From Yuukianura sp. NJ FZ-2021 (lineage: Eukaryota), in NCBI GenBank assembly GCA_046563655.1, contig CM102283.1, positions 124,001 to 188,000 on the forward strand: 64,000 bases of DNA, written 5' to 3'. A program made the translations under genes and the position numbers. A model generated the notes under the pieces. That model ran no database searches and had not been told where the DNA came from. It saw only the letters and a program-made list of their open reading frames with translations. Shown here piece by piece: positions 4,969 through 32,489 of the stretch (position 1 is the first letter of the stretch; each line of letters opens with the position of its first letter).

Positions 4969-5485
4969 ATGGCTGACGACGCCACAATCCATGAAGAAGG
5001 AGCAGGTTCAGCAAAACTTTTTCGCACTAACCATATCAGCAAACTCGGCAAAAACAATTGGAAACAATGGAGCCTTCACGTCACAGTGGTTCTTCGACAC
5101 GCCAAAGTATTGGACGTTGTAACCGGCACAACTCCAAAACCAGCACCCAACGCCTCAACTTATCAAGCTTGGTATGACAAAGACGCAGAAGCTCAAGCAA
5201 TAATCGTGCCTTTGCTAGATGACGACAACTCAAACCAAATTTACGATTTGTCAACGTCAAAGGAAATTTATGACAAATTGAAAGCAATTCATGCCGACAA
5301 CAGCACACTCAACAAAGTTCACACGCTCAGCTCATTTCTTGGCCACAAATTTCCAGAAAACAAAACTCTCGTCGAAGTTCATTCCGAAGTCGCCGGAATC
5401 ATTCGCAGCCTTAGCGAGATGAACATTAAAATCGATGAACTCACAACTGTCACAAAAATTGTTGATTCACTTCCAGACTTCCTAA
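4969..5485 (+). pseudogene. gag: Copia Gag N-terminus (Retrotran_gag_2/UBN2-like), truncated
   Basis: NWKQWSLHVTVVLRHAKVLDVVTG..P....WYDKDAEAQAII pattern; the ORF reads into foreign LTR sequence after ~5485. Confidence 0.8.
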
Positions 5486-11022: not shown

Positions 11023-14000
11023 TTGCTGATATCCTCCGAAGGCACTTCGTATAGTGATCAACTCGTGACAGGTTTCAAGAAAATACGTTACCACTTCAGC
11101 CTGTCCGGACCTGTTTTGTCACTTGGACGTCCAGTCACCGTCAACTGTCAAAGTTTTCAACAACAGCGGATCCTTCAACTCATCCCCATAGCAACTAATA
11201 TGGCTCAACGAAAATTGAAAAATCAAAGCAAAATGAAATCAACATCTATTTCCATAACTCCAGCTCCTGATTCTTCATCTGTGCAAACAATGTACAACAG
11301 TTTTTCAATAGCCGTTTCATCTAACGAAAACGCTTACAAAACCTCATCAACTCAAGCAGCCGTAGAATTCGCATCTAAAGTGTCAGCAGCTCCAGTTCAG
11401 AATGAAGTTTCTTCACCAGTTACTGCGTCAAATGGCTTCGGTTCCGACATCGTATCAGTTCCAGCTTCAAGTTCCTCCGGGTCCCATATTACATCAGTTC
11501 CAGCATCAAGTGATTCCGTTCCATCTTCAAATGACTATGGTTCCTGTATTGAATCAGTTCCAGCTTCAAATGACTATGGTTCCTGTATTGAATCAGTTCC
11601 AGCTTCAAATCACTATGGTTCCTGTATTGAATCAGTTCCATCTTCAAATGACTATGGTTCCTGTATTGAATCAGTTCCAGCTTCAAATGACTTTAGTTCC
11701 TGTATTGAATCAGTTCCAGCTTCAAGTTCCTCCGGGTCCCAAATTACATCAGTTCCCGCTTCAAATGACCCCGGTTCCTGTATTGAATCAGCTCCAACTT
11801 CAAAGGAGTCAGTTCCAGTTTCAAATGACTCCGGTTCCTGTATTGAATCAGTTTCAGCTTCAAATGACTTAGGCTCCTGTATTGTACCAGCCCCAGCATC
11901 AAATGACTTCGGTTGCCGTACTGCATCAGCTCCAATCACTGTTATTGCTTCAAGTTCATCCTCAATCCCAACTACCAATCAACACGTTTCCAGTCCTCCT
12001 TCTCTCACTAGAACACTCCAGAATCGCAAAATAACAGATGAATGGATTGCCAATAACATCATTTCGTCCGCCAGTGGCTCAATTCGAAAATTAGACGTCA
12101 AATCCAACTACCATCAATTTTGCAACTCTCTCAACATTCGCCCAGTCGTTGACACCACCTTCGGTACCAAACTACGAAAGTTATTCCCTTCGATGTCCAC
12201 AGTTCGTGCCGGAGGTCGCCGTCATTCCGAACAGTCATACTCTGGCATTGCTTGGAAGGATGTTTGCTCTTCGCCTGCTCGCAATTCCACAGAAGAAGAC
12301 CTAGGAAGCATCCTCGCAAAACTCAAACAATCCACACACACGATGAAGCACGTTCCTAAAGGAGCCAGGATCACTGCCGCGTCCAGGCTTTCAGACTTCA
12401 TTGATGAAGTGACTTCAACTAATTCCGTCGAGTCATGGTCAAACCTTTTGCTTTTCCCATTCTTCGCGTTTCGTCTACCTAAGAAGGCCGACCGTGTCAC
12501 CAACCTCACCTCCTGGGTAAAATCCTATATCTGCACCTTGTCACTTTCTTCGGCTCTCAACGTTTCAACGTTAATCTTGGAAACTTCAAGCACTCCACAA
12601 TCAAATTCAGCTATTCAGTCCAACATTATTCAATCTAAACTTGCTGATGGAGACATTCACGGTGCAGTTCGTATTTTATGTTCCGATGACTCAATGGCCA
12701 ATGAAGATTCTTCTACATTAGACGCTCTTGAAAGATTACATCCTCCTCATCCAATACCACTCCAGTTTCCAGATCGTCAACAATCACCTGAAGTTATCTT
12801 CGACGAACTCGAACTGCTAAAATCAATCTCTTCTTTTCCAAATGTTTCGGCCGGAGGTCTCGACTCTCTGCGACCTCAAGTTTTGAAAGAGCTAACTTCA
12901 AAAATTACTGGCGATTCCGGTCAAAAACTTCTGTCTTCCATAACGAAACTTGCAAACCTCATCATTAATAACACCATCCCTGAAGTAATCCGTCTGATCT
13001 TCTACGGTGCCTCTTTAATTGCACTCCAGAAAAAAAAGGTGGGATCCGCACTATCGCGATTGGATTGACCTGGCGCCGGATAGCATCAAAGCTTGTCTTA
13101 TCGAGATCAATGAAAGACATCGTCTCTTACCTAAGCCCGGTGCAAATTGGTGTAGGAGTCAACAACGGTACTGAAGCTGCAGCCCACGCCGCTAGGATCT
13201 ACGTCAATTCTCCACATTCTTCCAGTAAGGTCATGGTCAAGATTGATTTCAAGAACGCCTTTAACCTCATCAGAAAAGATCAAATGTTAGATTCTGTTAA
13301 ATCTCTCATTCCTGACTTCTATAACTTCATCCATCAAGCTTATTCATCCGACTCGAATTTATTTTACGGTTCTTCCAAAATCAAATCGAGCCTTGGAGTC
13401 CAGCGAGGCGATCCGATCGGTCCCGCCCTCTTCGCCATCACCATCCAGCCACTGGCAACAGCAATCCAGTCGGAGTTTAACGTATGGTATCTTGACGACG
13501 CAACCATAGCCGACAAGCCGGAAACAGTCCTGAAGTATCTGCAACATATCACCACCAACGCAGCTTCTTTTGGCCTACAACTTAACACACAGAAATGTGA
13601 GATTATCGTCATCGGTGGCGATGAAATGGAGTCCAGAGCCATCACTAGCTCATTTCTTTTGTTCGCACCTGATATACGTGTATGCAACGAAGAAGACGCT
13701 GAACTACTCGGAGCCCCATTATCCAAAGCTTCTGGACGACGAATCTTGAAGATGAAGATCGACGATTTCGAAAAACTTTCGTCTAAGCTGCTAGCTCTTC
13801 CGTCTCACGTGGCTTTTTTCTTACTCAGGGCTTCAATTTCGATTCCTAGACTGACATACTTCCTTCGCTGCGCACCATCATTTCTTGAAGAAGATCTACT
13901 GAAGGACTACGATGATTCTCTTCGTAAAGTTTTGGAAAAAATTCTCAACATAAGCCTTTCTGAAAATGCCTGGACTCACACATCTCTGCCGGTAGCACAA

Positions 14001-14987
14001 GGATGTTTGGGAATCCGCCAAGCTAACGATTGCGCTACGCTCTGTTTTCTGGCTTCAATCTTTAGCTGCGCCGACCTAATCACCTCCTTCCTACCCGGTA
14101 ACCTATCGCCTTTCGATGCATCGTACGACTTAGCAACATTCATATGGTCCAACGACGATTTTGATTTTCCATCTAATCACAAAGTTCAGAAGGAATGGGA
14201 GAAACTAAAGTCATCAAAAATTTACACTAGTCTGCTCAACAACTCCACCACTTTGACTGACAAAGCAAGACTAATTGCTGCCGCTGCTGCTCATTCCGGT
14301 GATTGGCTGAAGGCCCTACCCTCTTCACAACTGGGGACTCTTCTATCCAACGAATACTTCAGAATTTCGTGTTCCTTGCGACTTGGCACCAAATTATGTC
14401 TACCCCACCAATGTCGCTGTGGTGCAACTGTTAACGAAGACGGTCTTCACGGGCTGAGTTGTCCGGAAAGTGCAGGAAGACACTCAAGACATGGTTCAAT
14501 CAACGATATTATTGCTAAAGCCTTTCAAACAGCCGGAGTTCCTAGCCTGAAAGAACCTCCAGGTTGTTCTCGTTCGGATGGAAAACGCCCAGACGGCATC
14601 ACTTTGATACCTTGGAATACTGGACGTTGTTTGGTGTGGGACGTCACTTGCCGCGACACTTACGCCAACTCGTACCTTTCCATCTCCTCTTCTTCAAGTG
14701 GCTATCCTGCCGCTTTGGCTGAAATCCAGAAACACAAAGTGTATCAAGACCTAAATCATCAATTCATCGTCTCCATCATTGCTGTTGAAACTTCGGGGGT
14801 CTTCGGAGCCGAAGGACTAATTCTCATCAGGTCAATTGGTCAACGTCTTGCCGAGGTCACCGGTGAACTCCGATCCACCAATTTTTTACTTCAACGGATT
14901 AGCATCGCCATTCAACGTGGCAACTCCGCATCAATCCTTGGCACTCTTCCCCCTGGGAAAGGATTGGACGAAATTTTTTACCTCTAA
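11023..14987 (+). CDS. CRE polyprotein: repeat region, RFX-like domain, RT, CCHC finger, RLE endonuclease; frameshift in A-run at ~13030-13038
   Basis: KKGGIRTIAIGLTWRR restored across the frameshift; IDFKNAFN, GVQRGDPIGP, WYLDD; CRCG...HGLSC...RH; RPDG...WDVT. Confidence 0.9.
11440..11930 (+). repeat. 39-bp coding tandem repeat (SVPASNDYGSCIE), ~12 degenerate units
   Basis: Repeated tcagttccagcttcaaatgactatggttcctgtattgaa. Confidence 0.95.
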
Positions 14988-17229: not shown

Positions 17230-17531
17230 CTGGAAGAACGAGGGGAACAAAGTTCGTGCCATGATTCGCACCTTTGGAATTGCTACTTTGTTTGTGACCA
17301 TTAGTGCTGCAGAGTTGAAGTGGAACGAGCTCCTGGTGTTGTTGAAAGAATTCTTGATTCGAAATTTCTGAACAGGAGGCTCAGCAGTTACCTAACTCTG
17401 AGAAGGCAATTTTAATCCAGAGAGATCCGATCACTTGCGCCCGTTAGTTTGACAACCGTTACTCTGCGCTGAAGACGACTTCATCGCTCCCGAAATGGAC
17501 CTTTTGGTAATCGTGAAATCCGACACTTCTA
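17230..17531 (+). pseudogene. Helentron Rep, motif 1 segment
   Basis: WKNEGNKVRAMIRTFGIATLFVTISAAELKWNEL...DPITCAR*FD. Confidence 0.85.
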
Positions 17532-18261
17532 AGTTAGTAGACAATGCGAATCATCCGCTTCCTATTATTGATTTTTCTGGATCGATCAATACCTTATTGT
17601 TTCATCCCCTTGTGTCATTATGTTCTTTTCCTTACCCCCCCCCCCGTCGCCGTCGGCCGCCGCCGCTCTCGTGTGGATAGCGGAATGGTGTGGCGTCCTT
17701 TTTCGGACGTTGTTGACGCAGTTTGTGATTGGTTGGGAGGGGAGGAGTTTAGAACTTTTTTGGTGGGAAATTTAGAAAACGTTTTCTTTCTGGTCATTTT
17801 GGCGCGAGTTTGGAAAAACGTTTTTTGTCCGTTTTCTCATGCTTTCGTCATAGAGTTGTAGATGGCGCTGTGGTTGGTTCAGTTTTTTTGGATTGTGAGT
17901 GATATATCTCGTAGCGAATGGAGCCCCTTTATCAGGTGGAGCCGTTATAACAGATGGATTATATGTTTAAAGTGTGGGGAATATTTTTGTTCAGTATGGA
18001 ATGTTTTTAAACTATGGGGAACACTTTACTCTATAGGGCTGAACGTGGAAATGTAGGGAAGGTTTTTGTAGTGTGGGGAAGATTTTTTATTACATAGGGG
18101 CTGGAAATGAGTATATAGGGCGTTTTTTAATAGTGTAGGGGCTGAATATTTTTATACAGGGAAGGTTTTTGAAGTATAAGGAGTCTCGTTATTATTTCTT
18201 TTATCTCGTGAGCGTTTTGGAATTCGCACTCAGTCGAATAAGGAAAACTCACCAGAGAACA

Positions 18262-18948
18262 ATGGCACTGCTATTGTTTCCATTGGTCCTTTTGTTCATC
18301 GTCACAACTGCAGCTACAGGTATTTGCTCTAAAAAGTTAAAACTTTGGATTTTTTTTAAATTTAAAACATGTTTAGATTTCAACGGCTCACAAACGGAAC
18401 TCGTGAATTTGTGCGGAAGGTGCACAAATAGAGGTCATGTCTTTGTCAAGGCTTGGAATCTTTACAGCAGTCAACACTTTGTGTGTAGTGATAATTTGAG
18501 AAATCCGGGATTAATTTTCATGGACTATGTCAAAAACAGCAGAGGGTGCGAAAAGATAAAGGATGAAATGAATGGAGTAATTTTTGGAAGTCATTGGCCA
18601 GACAAGTTTGGGTCAAACGGGACAGCCCTTCGAGATTTATCAAGGGTAATCAAGGCGGTGGCGGGGGACAAAAGATCCTCTTACCCTCCGTCTCCCCTCT
18701 ACTACTACTCGATCGGTAATTACACAAAGCCCCTTGTCCACTTCCCTTCCATTCAGAATCAACTTGAAATCACTTTGTTTTGTCAAGGTCTCGGAGTAAC
18801 ATCAGTTCTTTTGCTATTGGCTCAATTGTCAATTGTGTTGTGGAAAAGTTACCCCTATTGTAGTGAATGCAGCGCAGACTTGAGCACGTCGAGAAGATTC
18901 GGAATCTACATTCGCCGTCAACAGAAAGTTTTTCCAAGTTCCTCTTGA
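18262..18948 (+). CDS. Predicted type I membrane glycoprotein (probable intron 18320-18376)
   Basis: Signal-like MALLLFPLVLLFIVTTAAT; Cys-containing ectodomain with NGS/NGT/NYT sequons; hydrophobic ITLFCQGLGVTSVLLLLAQLSIVLW; short tail with CSEC. An AT-rich in-frame GT..AG 57-nt segment follows the signal peptide. Confidence 0.65.
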   Translation: MALLLFPLVLLFIVTTAATGICSKKLKLWIFFKFKTCLDFNGSQTELVNLCGRCTNRGHVFVKAWNLYSSQHFVCSDNLRNPGLIFMDYVKNSRGCEKIKDEMNGVIFGSHWPDKFGSNGTALRDLSRVIKAVAGDKRSSYPPSPLYYYSIGNYTKPLVHFPSIQNQLEITLFCQGLGVTSVLLLLAQLSIVLWKSYPYCSECSADLSTSRRFGIYIRRQQKVFPSSS

Positions 18949-18967
18949 TCATTCGGCACAATCCAAT

Positions 18968-21900
18968 ATGACTTCGACTAGTCCATCCCCAAAGCAACAT
19001 CAACGCTTCTTTATGCCCACTGTCGTAAGTACTCTACTTTTTTAGAACCTTACGAAATTTCAATGAAGTTGAGTAGCTTATTCTGGTGAATTCTATAGAT
19101 CAAGTGTGGATACAACGGGCCAGACGGAAATTGCACCTTTCAATGCAACAGATATAGAAATATGGCGATACACTCTGAAGTGGTAAGCCTAAAATTGTAT
19201 TTAAAACGCCGCCTGAGATTTTTAAAATTATATCTCAATAAATTGCAGACTCATCTTTGCGAGTGGTGTGGCAAGTCATTCTACTCTTTGTCAACACATA
19301 CAAACAACTGTATGCAGAGGGGAAGGGGTCAGCGACGATTCGTCCTAGGCAGCGCTGCAGCAGCATCAATTTTACCATACCAAGAGGCAAGATTCGCTTT
19401 GAGAGGTTCCCTCATCATCTATACTGCTCCCATTGGAAATGACGCAGAATGTATGATTAGTAAGGCATTTGAGAGTCTCTACTTTCCAACCCGCTCACTC
19501 CTCAAGGAAGCAATAGCTTTTTTTTCGGGAATTAAAGTTAGCTTTAGGATACTAGTTCATATGATTGAAGTCAAATATAATGTAGAACATGAAAATGATG
19601 TTGTCGGTTCTCCGTTTGTCCCTTTGACTCACATTGGCTTTTTTGATGCAACGCTACTAAATGCGTGCAATTTTATAATTAGTAGCATCAACTTGTACTT
19701 GAGAAACTCTTCAGACTGGCAAATTGTCCGACTAAAAGAGTTGCAAGTTCACATTGGTGAATATGTTCCCATTAGAGGGCGCGCCTACGTAAAGACTCCC
19801 CCAGAACTCGCGAGACGGCAGGGGCTAATTTCCATTAGAGCTGTGACAAACTGCTTTCGCTATAGCTTACTTTGCGCTCTATATGGAGACGAAATATTAG
19901 AGGCAGGCATGGCAAAACGAATGAAGTTAGGCTACAAAGATAATGAAAAAGGAAAAGCTACTAGAGCAGTTTTGGAAAATCCAATGTCATATGTTGACTT
20001 TTTGCACTGGATCGATTTAGGCTTTCTTGGACATGACGAAGGGGTGTCGCTACAAGAAATTGATTTGATTGAAGATGTGTTCACTACTGTTTCTATCACA
20101 GTCTATGGCCACTCCGGCAAAGAAACGATCGTACTACGCGCCGCAAAAGAAAAACGGCCTAGCCATGTTAACCTATTACTTATCAAGCATTTAGAACAAG
20201 AACTTTACCATTACATATGCATAAGAGACTTTTCAGCGTTTCAAGGGGTACGCAACGAGGAGCGTCACGAATTCTGTGCATTGTGCCAGAAGCGTTTTGA
20301 TAGCAGGTCAAAATCAAAAGAAAGTCACAAGTGTGGGGGAGATTCTGTCTTTGTCAGAGCTCCCAAAAAGCCCACGGTCAAGTTTTCCAGATTCGATTCA
20401 CTGTTGTATGCCCCATTTGTCATTTATTTCAAATTCTTTTATTTGAGAATTGGGCATCCCCATTTGCAGCTTAGCCCCGCAACGGGGGGTGAGAGGGTAA
20501 CCGAGGAAAGGGTCCCTTTTGCCTATTGTGTGATCGCAGTGGAGGAAGGAGGGAGAGCAGAAAGGTTCTCGTACCAAGGAGAAGATTGTGTAGAGCACTT
20601 TTTCACAACCCTTCTCGACTTGAGGAAAAACAAAATTAGAACTGTAAACAAAACAAACAGGTTTGTGAACCCAGACGAAGAGACCCTTCGCAGTTTCCAC
20701 GCGACAATGGATTGTCAAGTTTGCGGGGAGCCTTTTTCCGATGAAAAGAATAGGTTAAGGACTTTTCACCACGATCATTGGAGCGGCCTCGCGCTGCAGG
20801 TGGTCTGTACTACCTGTAACTTGGCTATTCGACCTAAACTCTCGATTGCTGCCCTGACTTTGTGTGAAGATCGCAACGAATTTAAATTTTTACTTCAAAA
20901 ATATCGTCCAAAACATGCTACCATCGAACCAATTCGTAGAAAATCTGGAGAATACATTGGGCTAAAATTCAAGGGCCAGCACTCGTATCCAAAATTTAAC
21001 ATGAACTATTCCGTGAGAATGATGGATGTGGGAAATTTCAGACCAGATACAAAGCTCGCTCAGCTAGTTTCAGAAATGACACGTTCCGAAACAGGATTTA
21101 GAGTTTTTAAGCAAATGTTTGGCAGAGATGCAGTACCATCTGAATATGTTATTCAGGATCCAAACTTTTATCCAGTGTTTCAAACTGTGACAGATTTTGT
21201 AGACAAACAGTCACATCCTTTAAAACCCAATCCAGAAACCGTGAGTGAAGTTCCGCTTCTGCGACAGGAAATTTCAAATATTGATTTTATTAGGCATATT
21301 TGCAACGCCGAGACGGCACTGATTGCAGACATTTTTGAAGAAATTAGAATTTCATTTTTTAGCGAGTACAAGTTGGACGTGGCTTCTTATTGGAGCATAT
21401 CTTCGTATGCAAAAGAAGCCGCTCTGTTGTGGGAAAGAGTTGAACTAGAACCAGTCACTTCTCCTGAAATTGCCGAACTAATTAAAAAGGGAACCTTCGG
21501 TGGTGTGATTCAAACGACCAAACTAAAGTCAATTGCAAATAGTGAGGGAAATTCAAATTTTGACCCCTCGATCCCCCCAAAAGAGATTTGCTATGCAGAC
21601 ATTTCGACGTCTTATGGTAGCAGACTACTCGAGCGTTTGCCTGGAAGAGACATTCAGATGATGACAGAAGATGAATTGAACTCAATTGTGTTTGAAAATA
21701 TTGACTTGGAAGGGGAGTGGGGGTACCTGTTTTGTGTAGACTTGGACTATGAATCAGATTCTCTCAGGAATTACATTAGTGAATTTCCATTTCCTCCTGA
21801 ACGTAGGACCATGAAATCAGAGGCAATGTCTAGCATGCAGTTAGAAGGTTTGGAAGAGAGGAGGAAAAAATTTATAGAATGTGAACGTGTTCTTTTGACC

Positions 21901-22899
21901 TTATATAAAAAGATTGCACAAGTTTATTACTTTAAATTTTTAGTTTGGATGGTGCAGCACGGAGCGGTAGTAACTAGGCGACACAGTGGCGTCAAGTTTC
22001 GTATGCAAAAATTGTTTAGTTCTTTTGCAAAATTCAATATTGAAACTCGTGGTTCATCCCCTTGTGAGTTGATTAGACAACTAAAAAAGAGCATGAACAA
22101 CAACTTGGTTGGCAAGCTACAAACTGTCAATTCAGATTACCCCAATGTAAAGTTTATAGGGACCTCAGTAGAGGCAATAGAGTTACTTAAAAAACCAAAC
22201 TTTAAATCTTTTGACATAATCGATGAGAATATGGCACTGTTTGAAAGTGCAAAAGAGGTTGCAGTCGACACAAACTTAAAACTAATTGCGCTTGCAGTAA
22301 TGTCAGACGCAAAACAAAGACTTTATGAGTTATTTTGGGATCATTTGAAAGTCAAGTTTGGATCCGACGTCTCTCACTGTTATAGTCACACAGACTCTAT
22401 CATTTTTGAAGTTACACTTCCAAGAAAAGACGTTTTGTTGGGCTTGAAGGATTTGGGAAATGTGTTTGACTTTTCAAATTTGAACAAAGATCATTTCCTT
22501 TACAGTGAAATGAACAAGGGTGTGCCAGGGGTTCTCAAACTTCAGGGTGATCGATACTTAGAGTATTATTCCGCGGGTACGGCCCAATACTCTCTACTGT
22601 CTGACCCTCTATCCAACGGAGGGGATTGTGGGGAAACAATAAAGGCCAGCGGAATCCCTCGTAAGGAGGCGGCAAACCTCAGACACGCAGATTTCAAAAG
22701 GATCGTCGATGAGGATGGACTTTCAGAAAAAGTCAAAATAAAAAGGGTGAAAGTGACAGAAGATACAGTTTTGTCGGTGGAATCTGAAAGGTCGGGATTG
22801 GGGTTCATAACCTTTGGGCGGTATTTCATTTCAGATACCAAATCTCTCCCATTTGGTGATCGGAGAATCGACAACATGCAAAACTGTATTTCAATTTAA
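18968..22899 (+). CDS. polB: Polinton-type protein-primed family B DNA polymerase with N-terminal zinc fingers and degenerate catalytic motifs (predicted introns 19025-19098, 19183-19248)
   Basis: 1245 aa ORF with EndoVII-like Zn module (CQVC...HHDHWSG...CTTCN), ELEPVT..GTFGG, YADISTSYG, GYLFCVDLDY, KKSMNNNLVGK, YSHTDS, KGVPGVLK, SLPFGD. Splicing restores a C2H2 finger. Confidence 0.88.
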
Positions 22900-23086
22900 A
22901 TCTCAAACAAATGCTAGAAAGTAAGTAGTATTATGAACTTGAATGTCTCTTTTCTTTAAAATAAACTCGTAAAAAACATCGTCTCGACAAATACAACAAT
23001 TAATCTTTTAAATTACTAATTCAAGTTCCAGACGAAACTTGTTGCGGAGTACTGCCGTCTATTACAACAGAACAACATGCTAACCA

Positions 23087-23314
23087 GCACCGCATATTCA
23101 CAGGTACCACATGGTAAAGTGGCACCGCTCATTCATACGCACCGCATGTTAAAGTAGCACCGCATGTTAAAGTAGCACCGCATGTTAAAATGGCACCGCA
23201 TGATAGAATGGCACCGCTAATTCATAGGCACCGCATGTCAAAGAGGCACCGTATGTTAGATAGCACCGTATACTAGATGGCACCGTACGTTAGATGGCAC
23301 CGCATGTTGGAAAA
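23087..23314 (+). repeat. Tandem array of ~13 units of 17-18 bp, each starting GCACCG or a close variant
   Basis: gcaccgcatgttaaagta-type units with a conserved head and variable tail. Confidence 0.92.
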
Positions 23315-23971
23315 GCAACACGTCTGAGCTTCGGAACAAGAAATGGAACATGACATCACCACATCTCAAAAACTTTCAATACATATTCAATTCCAGCCAT
23401 CTACAGTAAAATCTCCCCATACTTTAAAAACATTCCCCACAGAAGCAAAAACGCCCCCTCCCCCGCTTTTATTAATAATAATTTAGGACATCTGTCATAC
23501 GGGCTCCACACGTGAAATATGCTAAACTTGTTATAACGGCTCCTTTTGTTATAACGGCTCCACCTGATGAAGGGGTTCCATTCGCTACGAGATATATCAC
23601 TCACAATCCAAAAAAACTGAACCAACCACAGCGCCATCTACAACTCTATGACGAAAGCATGAGAAAACGGACAAAAAACGTTTTTCCAAACTCGCGCCAA
23701 AATGACCAGAAAAAAACGTTTTCTAAATTTCCCACCAAAAAAGTTCTAAACTCCTCCCCTCCCAACCAATCACAAACTGCGTCAACAACGTCCGAAAAAG
23801 GACGCCACACCATTCCGCTATCCACACGAGAGCGGCGGCGGCCGACGGCGACGGGGGGGGGGGTAAGGAAAAGAACATAATGACACAAGGGGATGAAACA
23901 ATAAGTATTGATCGATCCAGAAAAATCAATAATAGGAAGCGGATGATTCGCATTGTCTACTAACTCTTCTA

Positions 23972-25395
23972 CGAAAGAGTGGAATTCCAGAACCGTGGAA
24001 GTCCTCACGTTCATGCCATGTTCTGGCTCTCCGACGCACCAACCTTCAACTCGGAGAATGCTTGTCATGATGACATGACGACTTTTATCGACAGTATGAT
24101 AACATGGGGTACAGACTACCCTCCGGAGGATCCAATCACTGGTCTACTATCTCTCCAGACTCATCGCTTGCCACACTTGCACTTCCACAGACACTTGCCA
24201 CAAGCGAACAAACAAGGGAGTCAAATGTCGTTTTGGTATACCCTTCTTTCCAATGGATAAAACTCGGATCCTTGTACTTCTGGAAGACACAGCACAACTC
24301 AAGGATCTCAAGTTATTACACAAAACTATTCGAGATTTTTTGGAAAATCAAGTTCTAGACACCGGAATGTCATTCGAAGCATTTCTGGAAGCAATAGGTT
24401 GCGATCTTCACTTGTATCTAAAAGTGATTCAGACGAAATTGAAGAAGCCACATGTGCTTTTGAGACGTAAACCCAACGAAGTCTATATTAACGCCTACAA
24501 TGAGAAGATTTTACGGCTACAAAAGCCAAACATGGACATTCAATTTATTCTGGATCCGTACGCATGCTGCAGTTACATCGTCGACTACATCAATAAGAGC
24601 AATCGAGGGCTTTCGGAGCTGTTGCGGAACGTGGTAGAGGAAGTGAAGAAAGGTAATGCGCCTCTGAAAGACAGTCGACAAGCTATTGGAGCGGCTCATA
24701 ACTTGAACAGCGAACTTTCGGCCCAGGAGGCAGCTTACAATGTTCTGCAAATGCCAATGAGCTACTCTTCAGAAAAATGCGTTTTTGTACAAACCGGACC
24801 GGCCAGCCATCGTACAAGAATGTTGAAGTCGCAAGCGGATCTGTCACAATTGGATCCAGATGACCAAGATATTTTCTTCAACAGTCCGACGGACCACTAT
24901 TCTCAGTACCCAATTGAATTAGAGTCATTCAATCTTGCTCAGTTCTCTGCTTGGTTTGAGCTCTCAAAAACATTGAGGCGACCCGTAGCCGAACCGAACG
25001 AGGAAACAGAAACTCTTGTGGCTGAAGAAACTGGATCAGATGTTTACAAGCTGCGCGACGGGTCAGGGTATGTTCGCAAGAGGAAATTCCCAAAAGTAAT
25101 TCGATTTGTCCGTTACAACAAGGAAAAGGATCCAGACAACTTCTTCGGAGAACTCCTGATGCTATACAAACCCTGGAGGGACGAAGGGAAAGAGTGTGGG
25201 GAAGATACGGACTGTCAGAAAATTGTTGCTGAAAATATTGACTTGATAACCAGCAACAGAAAGGAGTTTAATTTTTTTGACCACTGCATACTTGATGCTG
25301 CCATGGAAGAGGTACTGACAAGACCAAAAGGAGGTGAAGTTGAATTGGATGAAAACCAGCCTTCCGTGGATGAGCTGCGTGAGTATCGACTGTAA
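23972..25395 (+). pseudogene. Helentron Rep (HUH motif 2 onward), frameshifted
   Basis: VEFQNRGSPHVHAMFW; NMDIQFILDPYACCSYIVDYINKS; SAQEAAY; LMLYKPWR. Confidence 0.92.
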
Positions 25396-26278
25396 GATGC
25401 ATCTGGAGCTAACGCGGTTTATTTCGGTTCATACGAAAGACGGGCATTCGCAGAAAGTTTCAAGACTCCAGCGTTGACCACCGATGATGAATACTGGTCG
25501 CTGCTAGCTTCTTTGAATGACGAACAGCGAGACTTGGTTTACCACACTTTTGATCACGTAAAGAGACATGAAAGCTCGGCATTTCACATCTACTTAAAGG
25601 GAGGAGCGGGTGTCGGAAAATCCCATGTCATCAAAACGCTGCATCAGGGATTGGTCAGAATTCATAACTCTGATGTGAATTGTAAACCCGACAAAATCTC
25701 TGTCCTTCTGGTGGCTCCAACTGGGAAAGCGGCCTTCAACATTGGAGGCTCCACTCTTCACACAGCATTTCAGTTACCTGTGAACCAACGCGAAGCTGGG
25801 ACCCTTTCGGCTGATGTGTCCAATACGATGGCTGCAGCTTATTCGGAACTGAAGGCATCACTCTCATATGTGCTTCTCATTGTTAAATGATGGTAATTGG
25901 AATTATTAATCTTTAGATCGTTATCTGTGATGAGATTAGTATGGTGGGAGAACATTTACTGGAACAAGTTGACAAGCGCCTGCGTGATCTGTTTACCGCA
26001 CATATACCTTTTGGCGGCATATCCTTCATTGCAGTCGGAGATTTCTATCAGCTACCGCCAGTTTTGGCTGTCCCGTTGACGCATGTGACAATGAGGAATG
26101 CTATTTCTTCATTATTCCATCGGCATCTCTGGCATCACTTTTATGTGCACGAGTTGACCATAATCTTGCTCCAAAGTGAAGATATCGCCTTTGCTGTGGC
26201 CCTCAACAACAAGGTCAGGGGAATAATGACTGATACAGATAAGGAACTGATGCGGAGCCCCTGCTTCGACACTCTGCC
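25396..26278 (+). pseudogene. Helentron Pif1-family helicase, N-terminal part (intron 25855-25916 with GC donor)
   Basis: GGAGVGKS Walker A; APTGKAA; spliced ELK|IVICDEISMV Walker B; PFGG; GDFYQLPPV. Confidence 0.92.
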
Positions 26279-26664
26279 AGTAGGTAGTATGGTAGGACTT
26301 TCACGCCAAATCAACCTTTGGACCCATAAGGTTTAAAACCCACTGGCGTGAGATCCTTATGACTAGACTAATTAAGACTTCCTTTTCTTAATTAACACTT
26401 CCTTTTCTTAAGACCAATTAAGACTTCTAAGACTAATTAACGCTTCCTGCTATTTAATTAGTACCTTTGTCCGTTGACAATATGAGGCGGAGGAACACGA
26501 AAAAAGGTGGGATTCCTGGGTAACCAATTCTGTTTGGGGGTTGGCTTTTGCTAGGGGGTCGGCAGATGTAGAGGCTATATTTAACCACCAAATTTTACGG
26601 AGACCTTCAGTCTCTGCACAACTCCTCAACAGTCCTATTGTCCTAAACAGTTGCTATTGTTATA

Positions 26665-29496
26665 ATGTCGAAGCGCCAAGGAACACCAATTGTTGGGCCA
26701 TCTAGTAAACAATTTAATTGCATACTGTGCGCTCAAGGGTTTGCTTCTCGAGCAATATTAAAACTACATTTCGACGCTGTCCATAAAAACTGTCTTGAAC
26801 CAGCACCGCCGGGTTACGATGTCACAAATGAGAGTATTCTACAAGAATATCGCCACTTGTTCTGTTGGCAATGTGGTATACCATTTAATTGTCGGACTAA
26901 ACTTCAAGAACATTTCTACACCACTCATCCAGACTTTAACATTCAAGATGGCGGAGGAATTTCAACCAATCCTATATCTGTGACTTTAGTGCTGGAATCT
27001 CTAAAAATGAGTCGCAAGTACATGGCAGACTTTGATACATTTCCATGTGGTGAAGGTGTCGACGAGAGAGATTTCTTCGCAAATGTTAAATTATCATCCT
27101 ATGAAGTCATCAATGAAGACATCTCCAGATGGAAGAACTTAAGGATATTTTTTACCTTGGGGTGTCACTTCACCAAAACGCACGCAGATGGAACGGTTGA
27201 ATCAAAGGATGTCGGATTCACCTCATTTCGACACCTTGTCTTCAATGCAACCATGCTACCTAAAGTTTGGTCAGTCATGTGCAGTCAAATGTCAGATCAA
27301 ATTGAAGATTTCACAAATGAGGGCAGCGGCTGGACTCTCGACTCCATTCAAAAATTTGGATTTGTCACATCAAAGTATCAATTCACCAAGATTGGTACAT
27401 ACATGGAGAGGGAGACCCCGTACCCACTATCGACTCAAAAAGTTCTGCTTAACATCAACAACAGCAAAGTGTCAATGGACAATTCCCACAACAAATGCTT
27501 CGTCTGGTCAATACTCGCGCATGACAAAATCGGTGGTATTCCGGTTGGAAAAAATAACCATAGGTGTCGTATTGACAAGCTTGTGAAAACATACCAGCCA
27601 AATGAATACAAGTTGAACACTAAAGGAATCCATTTTCCGATGACTCTGGAACTCAACCCGAACATTTCTATAACCGTTCTTGGGTATGACATGGATGGTG
27701 ATGACATGATTTTACAGAAGCTCAGCAAAATTGAATCATTCAATTTTATACAAAGCAAGATCTCAATACTGTACAACTCCAAGCAGTCAAAAGATTTACA
27801 TGTGGACCTCAGGAGTGGAATTGGAGCTAATCACGGATCCAACCATGCATTGCTGGCTGGAGCATGCTATTAGAGGTAAAACCTAGCAGACAAATGGTAG
27901 AGATTTTCTAATTCATTTTATTGATAGGTGGATACGTTAGCGTTGGATCCATGCGAGAGGCTAGAGCGAACAACAAGTACATGGGAGATGAATACGATCC
28001 AGAAAAGGAATCCAGTTACCTCATCTACATCGATGCCAACAACTTATATGTACGTATTCAACAACGTCTATGAAAGATTATTATCTAAAATTTAATTATT
28101 CACTAGGGCAAAAGCATGAGTCTTCCGGTTCCAACTGGTCAGTTCCAATGGCTAACAGAGAAGGAGTTGATGAAACTTCAAGAAAACCACTTCATCATGG
28201 ACAATGAAAAAGGATACATGCTTGAAGTGGATTTGGAAATTGATCCTTCATTGCATGACAAGCTGAATGATTTTCCTCCGGCTCCAGTTAACCGTACAGC
28301 TGCAGAGAGTGAGTTGTCCAGTCACCAATTACAATTGACGGAAAAACTCGACATAGGTCCTGGAATTTTCAAAGTTAAGAAACTTGTGGCTGATCTGAAT
28401 AATAAGAAGAACTATATTCTACATCACGCCATTTTGATGGAGTACCTGAAGCTTGGAGTTAAAGTTACAAAACTTCACCGCGGAATTTCCTTCAAGCAGA
28501 GACCATGGATGAAGGACTTTATCGACTTTAACACCGAAATGAGAAAAAAGGCAAAGTCAGACTTTGAAAAGGATTATTGGAAACTCCTCAACAATTCTGC
28601 ATTTGGTAAAACAATCGAACAAGTACGCAAGGGTCAGAATGTCCGAATCGTTACATCAATGGAAGAAGCTCTACGTTACAACAAGAAACCCACCGTCCAG
28701 AATGTCATCCCAATTAACGAGTCAACATGCATCTTTATGATGAAGAGACTTCAAGTTACTTTGAACAAACCGATATTTACGGGGGTAACAGTGCTTGAAC
28801 TGGCGAAGAGCATCATGTATCGACATCACTACACTATACAGGCGAAATATGGCGTCGACAAGTGTCGCCTTATTTATACTGACACAGGTAAATGTTATAC
28901 TATTCAACAATTTAACTTTAACCTAAAGCTAACTTTTTATTTCAGATTCCTTCATCTATCACATCCAAACTGATGACGTTTATCAAGACATGCTCCAAGA
29001 CAAGGACTTGTATGACATGAGCGAATATGAATCTGATCACCCCATTTTCGGAGAGTTTCACGATCCCACAAACAAAAAAGTTTTGGGAAAATTCAAAGAT
29101 GAGGCTGCCGGTTCGGTAGTCACTCATGTCGTTTGTCCTCGTCCAAAAATGTACACCATTAGGTCCTTGAAACTTCAAGTTTACAAAGGATTTGATGGAA
29201 AAAATATTTACCAAAAGAAGACTGATGGTAGCTGGTTTATCAAAGACGAATACACGAAGAAGGTCAAAGGGATAACTAAAACTGCTGTCAACAACCAAAT
29301 AGCATATGAAGATTTCGAGAAAGTCCTTAAAGAAGATGTTCAAACTCGTGTATGGATGAGAGGATTTAGAAGTGTAGAGCATAGAATTTTTACAGAAGTA
29401 ACGTTAAAAAGGGCTCTGAACGGTTTAGATACCAAACGATATGGTGTTGATAGAATTAACACATTAGCATTTGGACATAGAGATATTTCTCAATAA
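26665..29496 (+). pseudogene. polB: Intron-containing Polinton-type pPolB with two N-terminal C2H2 fingers; exonuclease region deleted at ~27808
   Basis: GSGW and KCFVWSIL N-terminal motifs. Introns 27876-27927, 28050-28106 and 28888-28945 restore IRG|GY, YIDANNLY|GKSM and YTDT|DSF. Also KLLNNSAFGKT, RPKMY, KKVKGI, TLAFGH. Confidence 0.92.
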
Positions 29497-29551
29497 TTTA
29501 TTTTGACTTGTGTGAAAAAATGTTAGGTTGTAAACTGAAAACAATAAATGT

Positions 29552-29989
29552 TTATAAAACCATTTTGTTCAGCATTTTTAAAAATTCTGCTTTGTTAATA
29601 TTGATTACATTTCTTATTCCGGCTTTTACAACGGCTATTAAATAATATAATTGACTTGAATCCAACTTGTCGGATGATTCCTCTTCATCGTCATCTGAAT
29701 CAGAATCAGAATCGTCTGCGCCTTCCACAAGCTTGCGTAAGCTCTCCAAAGTCAGCCATTGAACTCCAACATCTGCATTGTGTAGCGCAAGAAGGATTAA
29801 CGATAAGCTGGATTTACTCATGCCGGAATGTGCCTTAGAGTCATCTTCTTCTTCAGTTTCCGTTTCTGCTTCAGTTTCCGTTTCTGAGTCAGAATCCATA
29901 GCTTCGTCTGAATGAGCAACACGATTATGTCGATGTAATGCGTCAGCGCGGGAAAATGACTTGGAACAAATGTCACAGTAAACCGGCAT
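29552..29989 (-). CDS. Small C2H2 zinc-finger protein with acidic tracts
   Basis: CDICSKSFSRADALHRHNRVAH followed by D/E-rich runs. Confidence 0.75.
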   Translation of the reverse strand: MPVYCDICSKSFSRADALHRHNRVAHSDEAMDSDSETETEAETETEEEDDSKAHSGMSKSSLSLILLALHNADVGVQWLTLESLRKLVEGADDSDSDSDDDEEESSDKLDSSQLYYLIAVVKAGIRNVININKAEFLKMLNKMVL

Positions 29990-30029
29990 GATGTACAAAT
30001 GCAACTGAACATTTTTTTTCCCGATTGCA

Positions 30030-30190
30030 ACGGTTTTATAGTGGTGGTGGTGGTGGTGGTACCTCCTCCTCCTCCTCCTCCTCCTCCTCCTCCTCCTCCT
30101 CCTCCTCCCTCCTCATCTCCTCCTCCTCCTCCTCCTCCTCCTCCTCCTCCTCCACGTAGGCTTATCAGGTGGTGGTGGTGTATATAAAGC
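30030..30190. promoter_or_regulatory. Putative bidirectional promoter: (CCT)n microsatellite flanked by (GGT)n and outward-facing TATA boxes
   Basis: TATAAAA on the minus strand at ~30033-30039 and TATATAAA on the plus strand at 30181-30188, between two divergent zinc-finger ORFs. Confidence 0.55.
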
Positions 30191-30257
30191 GTTGGTGTGA
30201 TGAGGGAGGTAAGCCACTTCTGTCCCTCATCTTTTGTGTTCCAGCATTCACAACAGT

Positions 30258-31020
30258 ATGGATTGTAGTGTTTGCAACAGTTCGTTCACACGTTCGGATA
30301 ACCTTAAACGCCATGTATATACTGCACATAAGCAAACCGATGATACTACATCGGATCATGATACCACAGCGGAACGTGATGAGTGTTTTGATTATAGGCT
30401 AAAGGCGCCATTCTGCATGACAATTAGCGGAGCAAGCCAAAGTGGAAAGTCGACGGTTCTTAAGGAATTACTCCTTCGACGTTTTGAAATGGTGGATGTT
30501 CCGATTAATGATATTCTGTATTGTTATGGGGAGCCAGAGAATGAATTTTTCAGGATCTGAAAAGTCACATCCCAACAATTAAATTTCACTACGGATTACC
30601 AGACGACTTTGCGAGCCCTACAACACTCATCGAATCGTCGTACTTGACGATCTTATGCATGAAGTTTGTGCTAGTAAGGATATCGTCTCAGCATTTACTA
30701 GAACGAGCCACCACAGGAATGTGAGCATAATTTTCGTCACCCAAAACTTTTTCGAGAAAGGACAACGAACGATAACAACAAATTGCCAGTATATTTGTTT
30801 CACAAAAAATCCTCGAGAAGTCTCTCAAGTTCTCTGCTTTGGACGTCAGCTAACAAAAAACGGAAAACGTAACGAAGCTCTGGAAACGTGCTATGAAGAC
30901 GTTATGAAAAAGCCGTATGGTCATGTATTTATCGACCTGCACCAATCCCAGGATGATAGGTTTAGAATCCGTAATAATATATTTCCCGATGTCGGATGTA
31001 CTGTGTACAGAAATAATTGA
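30258..31020 (+). pseudogene. C2H2 finger fused to A32-like packaging ATPase, frameshifted at ~30550-30630
   Basis: MDCSVCNSSFTRSDNLKRHVYTAH; Walker A GASQSGKS (30429-30452); Walker B IVVLDDLM; SHHRNVSIIFVTQNFF; KNPRE. Confidence 0.88.
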
Positions 31021-31095
31021 AATAATTCTTAAAATATAATAAATACATAAATAAATCAGAAATAATACATTTTATTTGACTTGAATAAAGACCGT

Positions 31096-31806
31096 CTAGC
31101 AATCTCTTTTGCCATGAAAAGTAATTTTCCAGATTATGTCACTGGAATATTTCTCTAGTCGAATACTCTCAAGTACAGCAAGTTCTCTCTTACCATAGAA
31201 ACTATCTATTCCCCATTTCCATCTGTTAATTTCCATTTGCTGGTGCTTAGTAACGTCCAATACATGTTGACTGTAGTTTGATGTATTAATTGCTGTGCAG
31301 CAACAGTTGAACTCGCCAAAAATGCTCCTGCAAGGATCAATATCCAATTTGTTGTGACAGGATCGGAACGCCTCATTGCGGAGTTTCTCGATGTAGCTGC
31401 GTTTAGTTTCATGAATCAGCATGTCCAAAGATTCCTCCAAATATGTGATAGGAAAACATCCACATTTTAGAAGTGACTCAACCAGCTGAGGAATATGGTC
31501 TAAATCGATCATAACGGGCGCGCCGCTTCGGATAAGGATGACACGAAATGATGCGTCCTTGATAAAATGAATCAGCAGTAGTGGTTCATCCGGCGAGTAT
31601 TCCTTTGGTGGATTACTACGGTTCTGCAATAACAGCTTCTCAAAATGTGGAAGATGCTTAATCATCCTTCCTTCTTCAATATATGCTTTGACTAGTTCTT
31701 CTACAACGGTTGGTAGCTCCTCGGATAAGAACATAATTGAATTTCCAGAATTCTTGACGCCAATAAGACCCTTGCTTAGATGGACTTCCGGTAGGCTTAC
31801 GTCCAT
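31096..31806 (-). CDS. Unknown protein, element C paralogue family member 1
   Basis: 236 aa ORF; LLLIHF...VILIRSG.PVMIDLDHIPQLVESL weakly resembles the two ORFs below. Confidence 0.65.
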   Translation of the reverse strand: MDVSLPEVHLSKGLIGVKNSGNSIMFLSEELPTVVEELVKAYIEEGRMIKHLPHFEKLLLQNRSNPPKEYSPDEPLLLIHFIKDASFRVILIRSGAPVMIDLDHIPQLVESLLKCGCFPITYLEESLDMLIHETKRSYIEKLRNEAFRSCHNKLDIDPCRSIFGEFNCCCTAINTSNYSQHVLDVTKHQQMEINRWKWGIDSFYGKRELAVLESIRLEKYSSDIIWKITFHGKRDC

Positions 31807-32489
31807 TCTTGGAAAATGTGTAAGAGCAATAGTAACAAATTTAGGACAATAGTAAAACTAATGATGGTGGAACTGTGTAGGTGGCACTGGGGTCTCCCAC
31901 AAATGTGGACAGCATTAAATCTCTGTTCGTTAAAAAGGTATTGGTCCAAAAAACGTTTTTGTACAAGAGCCAATCATATACAATTTGTTGGAGGCGAGGG
32001 AGTTAACTCCACCCAATGTTAACGGACAAAAAAAAATGAATTAGTTCAGTTTTAACTGGAAGTCTTAATTAGTCTGAAGAAGGAGCTGTTTTGACGTGAC
32101 GGTCAGTTTAATTTAGCTTAACATGGAGGCACTTTCGTACTCAACCGGTATTGATCATCCCTAAAAACGCCAATAAAGTTTTGAAAAATGAACCATGTAT
32201 TATCTTACATTTAAATTCCAGATTCTAACCAACCGCCTTATCCATATACTTTCTCTTTAGTAATCAAACAAAAATAAATGTGTACGACAGAAAATCCAAG
32301 AAAATTGTTTCATTAAATTCACTCCTCTCGAGGTCCTATGATCCAATAAGAAATTATTGTGATATAAATTGTATTGTTTATAGACACGTGGATATTTTTT
32401 TTTTTAATTACATCTAAACAGGATAGAGTAAAAGAATTATTGTAGTGTATAAGAAATACTGGTGAATCGTCTTGAGTGCAAGAGTCTTC

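Follow-up and report, generated by a model that had tools for sequence, protein, structure and literature searches.

We favour, with moderate confidence, the reading that the 1245-codon open reading frame (ORF) on the forward strand of the window (the whole 64-kb stretch of DNA analysed here, numbered from its first letter) encodes the replicase of a compact, recently inserted, non-autonomous Maverick/Polinton derivative, with a dead exonuclease site and a polymerase site that has been kept. The protein itself is probably, to judge from its residues, an exonuclease-dead, low-fidelity and still catalytic TP-vOTU-pPolB. By sequence comparison its altered motifs are a trait of its clade, and the ORF is under purifying selection.

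A polymerase gene within a young element

The gene lies in an element of 6434 bp (17532-23965), the features of which are:

17526-17531, no strand: target-site duplication, left copy CTTCTA, 6 bp (joint 17525->23966)
17532-17958, + strand: left terminal inverted repeat, a 427-bp arm starting 5'-AGTTAGTAG
17977-18182, + strand: left subterminal direct repeats, 4 copies of ~44 nt at a spacing of ~60
18262-18948, + strand: ORF1, small predicted membrane protein (exons 18262-18319 and 18377-18948, predicted splice)
18968-19024, + strand: candidate polymerase exon 1, 19 codons (splice predicted from sequence)
19162-22899, + strand: polymerase ORF, 1245 codons, with TP-like domain, vOTU-like domain, Zn finger, dead-site exonuclease-like domain and polymerase domain
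23084-23332, + strand: direct repeats of 17-18 nt in an array (GCACCGCATGTTAAAGTA-like), lying past the polymerase stop and ahead of the right inverted repeat
23541-23965, - strand: right terminal inverted repeat, ending ...CTACTAACT-3'
23966-23971, no strand: target-site duplication, right copy CTTCTA, 6 bp

The two arms of the inverted repeat match in 421 of 425 ungapped columns, with two one-base gaps in addition, and since the ends are thus ~99% alike the insertion is young. All three DNA runs (3/3, all from one sample) contain an empty-site joint in which 6440 nt are skipped and 6 letters fit either side. The element sits inside a Helitron copy, and the same sample holds many diverged copies of it. 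Its inverted ends, its duplication and its compact layout of two genes had escaped the initial annotation.

Akin to Maverick/Polinton transposons, the element has long terminal inverted repeats, a perfect 6-bp duplication and a pPolB gene, and its AGT...ACT ends, in which each triplet is single and not doubled, resemble the 5'-(AGT)2//(ACT)2-3' of vertebrate Mavericks given in the accessible part of PMC8097293. It differs from them in size (6.4 kb as opposed to 12.7-24.6 kb for intact vertebrate Mavericks in the same text, and 13-25 kb in general) and in content: capsid, packaging ATPase and protease genes were not found in its 6434 bp, which hold only the polymerase gene and that of a small membrane protein. 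Of the gene-strand ORFs of at least 80 aa, which include one in the right repeat at 23512-23880, three (17544-17861, ORF1 and the polymerase) were scanned with Pfam for an RVE integrase and gave no rve match. Nor did an integrase turn up elsewhere in the window, and the helper element is therefore an assumption. Element C, which the initial annotation had used for comparison, has a perfect inverted end of just 18 bp and lacks a matching 6-bp duplication.

The polymerase frame had been described as uninterrupted, and re-reading it at 19162-22899 showed no stop in 1245 codons; at the ~41% GC around it a random codon is a stop with a frequency of ~0.061, and a frame of this length would stay open by chance with P ~ e^-79. 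While 19162-22899 thus stands as an open frame, it does not stand as the extent of the gene, which probably starts, by its splice signals, in the upstream exon at 18968-19024: a predicted 74-nt intron (19025-19098, GTAAGT...TATAG) would be followed by an exon 2 that runs from 19099 in frame with the ORF. ORF1 likewise has a predicted GT..AG intron (18320-18376), its exon 1 coding for a hydrophobic N-terminus and its exon 2 for a hydrophobic stretch close to the C-terminus. Its product is 45% identical (E 6e-53) to that of the ORF preceding the polymerase gene of the metagenomic relative L002 (see below), with which the element shares the gene order ORF1 plus polymerase. Searches for the ORF1 family gave only a weak DUF7501 row in Pfam (E 0.019, below the cut-off; nothing for the L002 copy), no usable match in the Atlas, and 0 of 51 candidates at E <= 0.001 in a word-index homologue search.

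Exonuclease residues are replaced, polymerase metal ligands are kept

The domains and motifs of the protein are, on the + strand throughout:

19366-19770: TP-position domain D1 (residues 69-203), located where Polinton pPolBs have their terminal-protein domain
19798-20238: vOTU-like cysteine protease domain (residues 213-359), Cys231 and His350 kept
20413-20439: ExoI PFVIYFKFF (residues 418-426), Asp->Lys and Glu->Phe by alignment
20704-20826: Zn-binding endonuclease-VII/HNH-like insert, C518, C521, H537, H539, C552 and N553 kept
20854-20895: ExoII LTLCEDRNEFKFLL, His->Leu, Asn->Cys and Asp->Glu by alignment
21292-21342: ExoIII RHICNAETALIADIFEE, Tyr->Ile and Asp->Glu by alignment, 3' of an 18-residue deletion
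21586-21621: motif A ICYADISTSYGS, Asp813 and Tyr818 kept, by alignment
22081-22119: motif B LKKSMNNNLVGKL, Lys976, Asn980 and Gly984 kept, aromatic -> Val
22375-22404: motif C HCYSHTDSII, first Asp->His, Thr1077 and Asp1078 kept
22567-22596: KxY motif YSAGTAQYSL, Lys->Ala, Tyr kept

The motif strings quoted in the initial annotation (PFVIYFKFF, YADISTSYG, KKSMNNNLVGK, YSHTDS and GTAQY) were all recovered from the translation. Of the element C strings set beside them, KLLNNSAFGK and RPKMY are read directly, whereas YIDANNLYG and YTDTDS appear only once short introns are removed. Motif homology was set by alignment to canonical relatives, including a 150-row alignment, which located each altered and each retained residue; the 135 long rows among the best matches comprise 18 that have lost ExoI and 117 that are canonical.

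In this alignment the loss of the ExoI catalytic residues is confirmed as D424->K and E426->F (DxE->KxF). ExoII has changed by H567->L and D573->E, and ExoIII by Y713->I and D717->E directly after the 18-residue deletion; the acidic residues of these two motifs had been reported as not evident, but both positions carry Glu (E573, E717), and the sites are therefore altered rather than empty. The deviations noted in the polymerase motifs were likewise placed by alignment: in motif B the Ser has become Asn next to the change of the aromatic residue to Val, in motif C D1076 is replaced by His (DTD->HTD), and in KxY K1141 is replaced by Ala with Y1143 retained. The survival of the motif A Asp and of the second motif C Asp, D813 and D1078, was borne out, and these two and K976 are invariant in every row that covers their columns. 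The metal ligands of RB69 are the Asp of motif A and, within motif C (621-624), D623, according to the accessible part of PMC3564110.

Both Zn modules are kept, as had been proposed: C372, C375, H389 and C391 of the first are retained along with the ligands of the second, of which C518, C521, H537 and N553 are invariant across the 18 ExoI-lost rows. The second insert matches PF02945 with E 0.0075, under the Pfam cut-off.

The 18 ExoI-lost rows agree throughout in only 13 of 670 columns, among them D813, K976, G984 and D1078, while the four exonuclease carboxylate positions are free to vary, and this is the pattern expected of a working polymerase site. At position 1076, 17 of these 18 rows have a polar or a charged residue. 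The window protein (P0001) deviates at 18 of the 46 positions that are at least 97% conserved in the 117 canonical rows, including 869, 920, 1128, 1163 and 1219.

We note that the first motif C Asp, the KxY Lys and the motif B aromatic are all replaced in the subclade, which speaks against activity; in phi29, mutation of the corresponding Asp (D456) or Lys (K498) reportedly leads to severe impairment.

The altered motifs are shared by relatives and the ORF is under selection

A homology search with the protein gave 4290 matches at E <= 0.001, 477 of them at E <= 1e-30, to pPolB-type proteins. Homology to known pPolBs is significant (E 2.4e-32 to P0005, which carries PF03175), and Pfam PF03175 (DNA_pol_B_2) itself gave no row at E <= 0.1 on the window protein. 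Each of the ten closest proteins (10/10) forms a singleton cluster and stems from a metagenome or read assembly, and the only named one is a 'hypothetical protein'; among IMG/VR viral contigs, 105 pattern matches yielded 0 confirmed relatives.

A metagenome scan with a four-row clade alignment retrieved four loci (L001-L004). L002 is 57% identical to the window protein over residues 29-1002 (53% in the exonuclease domain), is a single open frame of 990 codons, and has the same altered states (PFVLYFKFF, HHDHWS, NEF, GET, ICYFDMSMSYSS and KKSMNNNFVGK), whereas L001 and L004 (2/4) have stops and frameshifts. P0007 (935 aa) and P0008 (1203 aa), which like the other 14 ExoI-lost proteins come from contigs of 8.5-14 kb, group with the window protein with a clade support of 100, and in both ExoI, the first motif C Asp and the KxY Lys are absent. 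In one well-supported clade ExoI is lost in 17 of 20 rows, and the tree places at least two losses of proofreading in this pPolB branch.

The ExoI-lost lineages sit on long branches, and the terminal branch of the window protein is long as well. Such branches could reflect relaxed constraint rather than a mutator effect.

As a check on selection, the ORF and L002 were compared over 972 codons, giving pN 0.285 against pS 0.833 with 346, 241 and 589 differences at codon positions 1, 2 and 3; neutral decay was not borne out. Because synonymous sites are saturated against L002 and L003 (pS 0.83 and 0.92), we give pN against pS instead of dN/dS proper. Diverged contigs of the same sample gave 15 listed variant places within the ORF; 11 of them are third positions (binomial p 0.0018), and 10 are synonymous and 5 nonsynonymous.

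A phi29-like fold behind putative terminal-protein and vOTU domains

Structure prediction, which the initial annotation had proposed, gave a confident phi29-like fold for residues 395-1245 (AF2 model, pLDDT 90.5, pTM 0.91), a confidence that is driven by a mostly canonical alignment and says nothing on activity. The nine best PDB matches of this Exo-Pol model are chains of phi29 DNA polymerase (E 4.9e-18 to 2.2e-14; TM 0.63-0.71 normalised to the target), covering the exonuclease and polymerase fold; a PDB chain sequence search with the whole protein gave 0 matches at E <= 1.

A Foldseek search with the N-terminal model returned nothing at E <= 0.001. In a wider VIA structure search with the vOTU-like domain, OTU domains made up 25 of the 50 matches listed, with middling Z scores of 4.5-7.8; over 47 rows C231 and F232 are nearly invariant and H350 is invariant, and the domain may be a cleaving protease. 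In structure, D1 is matched best by the little fingers of Y-family polymerases (2r8j, Z 8.6, rmsd 2.8, 108 aligned), and we treat D1 as a putative terminal-protein domain by analogy with the arrangement described in the accessible part of PMC11161782.

In homology, phi29-like fold, putative OTU-like Cys/His domain and Zn inserts, the protein agrees with the Polinton/Maverick pPolB (TP-vOTU-Exo-Pol) of that text, from which it differs by its replaced exonuclease carboxylates, first motif C Asp and KxY Lys.

Discussion

Of the options offered by the initial annotation, that of a proofreading-dead divergent enzyme agrees with what we found: all four exonuclease carboxylate positions are changed (4/4), open-frame relatives share this state and selection is visible. 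In the mechanism we propose, the host would transcribe and splice the polymerase gene; the replicase would protein-prime and, starting at the inverted ends, copy the element DNA with no proofreading; and the integrase of a full-length Maverick, acting in trans, would insert the copy and generate the 6-bp duplication. Lack of proofreading together with weakened primer-terminus contacts would make this a low-fidelity polymerase.

Eukaryotic Pol alpha and Pol zeta are family B enzymes that keep the polymerase carboxylates and have no proofreading. Crenarchaeal Dpo2/PolB2 resembles the window protein in the same way, with polymerase carboxylates kept and exonuclease function lost; archaeal Dpo2 has the first Asp of YGDTDS replaced and was genetically shown to be active in vivo, as reported in the accessible part of PMC7390963, so that the substitutions seen here are in part those of a known active clade. 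These enzymes are not protein-primed, belong to another lineage and serve cellular repair or priming, whereas the window protein is a proposed transposon replicase. Polinton-derived parallels are offered by the pPolB of mavirus and by the pPolB-S1 helicase fusions of PLVs and transpovirons, in which proofreading is gone and TP, vOTU and palm are kept; these were initially called inactivated and later predicted active, the PLV fusions being now among those so predicted (PMC11161782, PMC5499653, both accessible in part). In mavirus most of the exonuclease domain is lost (PMC11161782, same portion), and in this group the domain has physically gone and a helicase has been gained, as opposed to the window protein, in which the domain is kept, its site destroyed and no helicase present.

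A survey of 20,702 plus 1,331 integrase-linked pPolBs reported every Exo and Pol motif as conserved and excluded polymerases without a linked integrase, according to the accessible part of PMC10748475. By contrast, a sizeable branch of the same family has dropped proofreading at least twice with the polymerase site still under selection, and at least one of its members is carried by a very small, recently mobile, integrase-less element. Literature searches, with most subscription journals outside their scope, found neither an integrase-less, polymerase-only Maverick derivative nor exonuclease-site loss in animal-type Polinton pPolBs. If active, the protein would be a natural exonuclease-minus, protein-primed polymerase, would serve to test if the family can do without the first Asp of DTD and without the KxY Lys, and would offer a handle on the persistence of reduced virus-like transposons beside their helpers; if inactive, it would be a selected pseudo-enzyme within a transposon, the more unusual case.

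Tentatively, we raise the possibility of an undescribed lineage of two-gene 'satellite Mavericks', related to full-length Mavericks as satellites are to helper viruses. Their ends would be of Maverick type and would enclose the genes for a small membrane protein and for a TP-vOTU-pPolB that cannot proofread. Such elements would bring their own error-prone replicase and borrow the integrase, and perhaps the capsid, from full-length Mavericks, and their proofreading losses and long branches would reflect a mutator life-style, not decay.

The less likely alternative is that the protein is a true pseudo-polymerase selected for a non-catalytic role (TP donor, scaffold in the replication complex of a helper Maverick, or competitor for inverted ends), its retained Asp, Lys and Asp serving nucleotide or DNA binding only. 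This was the headline of the initial annotation, with a scaffold or dominant-negative role, and we consider it unlikely, if deserving of weight. The replaced first motif C Asp, KxY Lys, motif B aromatic and 18/46 highly conserved positions fit it, as do the missing PF03175 match and an element that, without integrase and capsid genes, would depend on a helper in any case. Truly inactivated homologues, such as the C-terminal half of Pol epsilon, the archaeal inactivated PolB family, poxvirus F12 and herpesvirus UL8, are not known to retain the aspartates that bind metal in motifs A and C, whereas the clade of the window protein keeps both invariant. These four are listed as inactivated PolB homologues in the accessible part of PMC5499653, which shows that family B polymerases with structural roles exist, and they share with the window protein a diverged PolB fold under selection. 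Against a non-catalytic role, none of the 18 ExoI-lost rows departs from the two metal-binding Asp or from Lys and Gly of motif B, while the exonuclease carboxylates drift; moreover, Tlr1-type pPolB and archaeal Dpo2 were first called inactive and later predicted or shown, respectively, to be active (PMC11161782 and PMC7390963, each accessible in part).

That a host gene was domesticated from a Maverick polymerase, for instance for specialised DNA synthesis, is improbable. Purifying selection, the likely spliceosomal introns and an exonuclease loss like that of specialised cellular PolBs would suit such a gene, but it is flanked by 427-bp inverted ends and a target duplication and placed inside a Helitron copy, and it has an empty-site form and many diverged copies in the same sample, as befits a mobile element present in multiple copies rather than a single-copy host gene. 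Most improbable of all is a neutrally decaying pseudogene left open by accident, as the many deviant motifs, the broken relatives L001 and L004 and the long terminal branch might suggest, because L002 is open with the same motif states, pN lies below pS, 11/15 variants fall at third positions, a 1245-codon open run is improbable by chance and the near-identical inverted ends mark a young insertion.

A divergent polymerase recognised by sequence homology and predicted fold

The reading frame at 19162-22899 (+) comprises 1245 codons without a stop, with stops throughout the opposite strand, and all of the motif strings quoted in the initial annotation were located in place in its translation (P0001, to which residue numbers refer). 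Pfam recognised no polymerase family in P0001: just two rows appeared at E ≤ 0.1, an endonuclease-VII zinc module with a weak score (residues 515-555, E 0.0075) and CTU2, weaker still. A search of PDB chains by sequence gave no match. A word-index search yielded four relatives with 22-27% identity, one of them carrying PF03175, and an exhaustive HMMER search with residues 46-1245 retrieved 4290 proteins at E ≤ 0.001, of which 477 reached E ≤ 1e-30. Judged by sequence, homology to these relatives is clear despite the Pfam and PDB nulls.

The AF2 model of residues 395-1245 (77-row alignment; mean pLDDT 90.5, pTM 0.91) had phi29 DNA polymerase chains as its nine best PDB matches (E 4.9e-18 to 2.2e-14). 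The N-terminal 413 residues were modelled with a pLDDT of 85.2, and Foldseek returned no match to this model at E ≤ 0.001. A wider VIA search gave matches whose Z values are middling by the tool's rating: for residues 213-359, OTU proteases made up 25 of the 50 matches listed, the top ones being the OTUs of Kupe virus (Z 7.8, rmsd 3.5, 107 aligned) and CCHFV (Z 7.7), and residues 69-203 matched little-finger domains (2r8j, Z 8.6, rmsd 2.8, 108 aligned). Across 47 rows, His350 never varies, and Cys231 and Phe232 hardly do. The predicted N-terminus fits the TP-vOTU-Exo-Pol layout (terminal protein, OTU-like protease, exonuclease, polymerase) that PMC11161782 gives for Polinton polymerases.

Motif loss is a trait of a clade

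Motifs were aligned with the first four matches and then with the 150 best representatives less P0156.

Motif states of P0001 in the alignment
ExoI: D424 to K, E426 to F
ExoII: H567 to L, D573 to E
ExoIII: Y713 to I, D717 to E, downstream of an 18-residue deletion
Zinc modules: both retained
Motif A: D813 and Y818 retained
Motif B: K976, N980 and G984 retained; Ser to Asn, aromatic residue to Val
Motif C: D1076 to H; T1077 and D1078 retained
KxY: K1141 to A; Y1143 retained

Conservation is 97% or higher at 46 positions across the 117 long sequences with canonical motifs; P0001 matches 28 of these and deviates at 18. The ExoI DxE is absent from 18 of the 135 sequences of at least 850 residues, fifteen shorter ones having been removed before tree building. 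P0001, P0007 and P0008 group together with full support; in all three, ExoI is lost, the first motif C Asp is replaced (H, H and N) and so is the KxY Lys (A, S and T). A quick IQ-TREE tree was computed with the motif columns taken out, from 32 sequences (17 ExoI-lost, P0098 being omitted, 3 closely placed canonical and 12 canonical outgroup). It placed the 17 together with the 3 canonical sequences in a 20-member clade (support 100), within which at least two state changes are required. Distances from the base of this clade to the tips were 1.48-2.66 for the ExoI-lost and 0.89-1.44 for the canonical sequences (IQ-TREE branch lengths; the sequences are non-independent). Shorter relatives share these states: PYCMYYRFF (P0012) and PFVLYYHFY (P0024) at ExoI, KSLNNNLVGK, QTD and NQY in P0015, and KKSMNNNFVGK and HTD in P0056. 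The altered states are thus a trait of the clade and not private decay of P0001.

Constraint persists at the polymerase site

Among the 18 ExoI-lost sequences, 670 columns could be tested and only 13 show no variation (C518, C521, H537, N553, F626, P671, D813, P876, G934, K976, G984, D1078 and L1113), and these include the polymerase metal-binding aspartates D813 and D1078 as well as K976 and G984 of motif B. Exonuclease positions 424, 426, 573 and 717 vary freely, and position 1076 holds a polar or charged residue (D, E, H or N) in all but one of the 18, which has Leu. This column pattern indicates that constraint has been lost at the exonuclease site and maintained at the polymerase site.

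Scanning of metagenome contigs gave four loci with relatives of P0001 (L001-L004). L002 is a single open frame of 990 codons running off its contig, is 57% identical to P0001 over residues 29-1002, and has the same states for ExoI, Zn, ExoII, ExoIII, motif A and motif B; L003 is open for 314 codons. L001 and L004, from the same subclade as P0001, contain in-frame stops and frameshifts, with the HTD motif C and loss of the KxY Lys still visible; the family therefore includes dead as well as open copies.

Identity of P0001 to L002 by domain
TP-like domain: 65%
vOTU: 61%
Exonuclease-like domain: 53%
Polymerase domain, aligned part: 63%

The 53% identity of the exonuclease-like domain means that it remains under constraint, in the manner of a structural domain. 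Between P0001 and L002, over 972 codons, pN was 0.285 and pS 0.833, with 346, 241 and 589 differences at codon positions 1, 2 and 3; no ratio is reported because synonymous sites are saturated. DNA contigs from three runs of one sample contain many copies that are 80-95% similar. Among the 40 variants listed (1083 further ones exist), 15 lie inside the ORF, 11 at third, 4 at first and none at second codon positions (binomial p 0.0018 against one third), 10 being synonymous and 5 nonsynonymous. This third-position excess is supportive and not a formal test, because the variants are linked on shared contigs.

A two-gene Maverick-like element inserted in a Helitron

The polymerase gene lies in a 6434-bp element with two genes, which starts with AGTTAGTAG, ends with CTACTAACT and is flanked on either side by CTTCTA.

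Features of the element and its host repeat (splice models predicted from sequence)
17532-17958 and 23965-23541: terminal inverted repeats, 421 of 425 ungapped columns identical, plus two one-base gaps
18262-18948: ORF1, hydrophobic at its N-terminus and again close to its C-terminus, with one probable intron of 57 nt
18968: probable start of the polymerase gene, with a 19-codon exon, a 74-nt intron and an in-frame junction at 19099
23979-24260: Rep-like piece of the Helitron
25474-26336: PIF1 helicase pieces of the Helitron

ORF1 gave no recognisable family in family searches; it shares 45% identity (E 6e-53) with the ORF that directly precedes the L002 polymerase, which shows conservation of the gene pair. 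None of the element's scanned ORFs is an integrase, capsid, ATPase or protease gene, and 6434 bp is too small for them. The long inverted ends, perfect 6-bp duplication and AGT...ACT termini are hallmarks of Mavericks (PMC8097293, PMC10748475), whereas the size and gene content are atypical of them. About a dozen 17-18-nt direct repeats resembling GCACCGCATGTTAAAGTA occupy 23084-23332, downstream of the polymerase stop codon and ahead of the right inverted repeat, and the left side has four ~44-nt repeats (17977-18182) instead; these repeats could serve as binding sites or make up a regulatory region.

Contigs in all three DNA runs connect 17525 to 23966, omitting 6440 nt, with six letters matching both sides; this joint is the element-free site with a single copy of the duplication. 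Given the repetitive flank, contigs with this joint probably represent further copies of the host repeat, which is a Helitron. The Helitron copy (23979-26336 together with the left-hand flank, which extends to 17531) was the target of the insertion, and its sequence is highly repeated in the sample's DNA contigs (summed word depth hundreds to thousands).

Probable catalysis without proofreading

We regard P0001 as an exonuclease-dead polymerase that is probably still catalytic and of low fidelity. The initial annotation had also entertained a non-catalytic pseudo-polymerase, and the subclade has indeed also lost the first Asp of motif C, the Lys of KxY and the aromatic residue of motif B, along with further basic residues that are otherwise conserved; phi29 mutants at the positions corresponding to the first two are badly impaired, which counts for this alternative. 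We consider it less likely and favour catalysis, because both equivalents of the RB69 metal ligands, the motif A Asp and D623 (the second Asp of motif C, 621-624; PMC3564110), are retained and because there are precedents. Crenarchaeal Dpo2 lacks a proofreading domain and carries a substitution at the first Asp of YGDTDS; predictions had long classed it as inactive until genetics revealed damage-induced mutagenic synthesis (PMC7390963). According to PMC11161782 and PMC5499653, mavirus pPolB (protein-primed family B polymerase) has lost most of its exonuclease domain, and pPolB-helicase fusions of polinton-like viruses, once called 'inactivated', are now predicted to be active. An active P0001 would prime and copy its own small element, starting from the inverted ends; the vOTU may act in cleavage, and a full Maverick, as putative helper, would provide integration in trans.

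Neutral decay is contradicted by the states common to the clade, the invariant catalytic columns and the DNA-level selection. The anatomy of a mobile element and the presence of many copies contradict a domesticated host gene.

Proofreading loss in Polinton-derived polymerases, inactivated PolBs and non-autonomous transposons are already known. In the literature covered (main texts from a limited range of journals), we found no description of an animal-type Polinton polymerase branch that kept the exonuclease domain with its site destroyed at least twice, of HTD and AxY states under selection, or of a 6.4-kb two-gene carrier without integrase.

Other elements in the window

26365-32075: second Maverick-like remnant (element C of the initial annotation), exonuclease domain absent
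26665-27873: its TP/vOTU-like N-terminal ORF
from 27897: its polymerase-domain sequence, in a different frame, canonical motifs split by short introns near 28040-28105 and 28887-28944
29552-30004 (-) and 30234-30560: its C2H2 zinc-finger ORFs
44755-48186 (-): P0002, an open frame of 1143 codons, the window's second longest
11023-14987 (+): 681-aa ORF that carries an RFX DNA-binding domain (E 3.1e-11) and shares 4 nt with the beginning of a 640-aa reverse-transcriptase ORF

Element C has another ORF that contains the Walker-A-like string GASQSGKST, noticed by eye alone, and the ends of the element form only an 18-bp perfect inverted repeat (AGACTAATTAAGACTTCC), with no matching 6-bp duplication seen there. 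P0002 matched no Pfam family at E ≤ 0.01. The unit at 11023-14987 is possibly a retroelement with an RFX domain in its first ORF. The window is rich in transposons, and retroelement pieces at 3-2707 (-), 4969-5535 (+) and 35104-35853 (+) comprise reverse transcriptase with aspartyl protease and zinc-knuckle gag, copia-type gag and a weak endonuclease/RT-type match.
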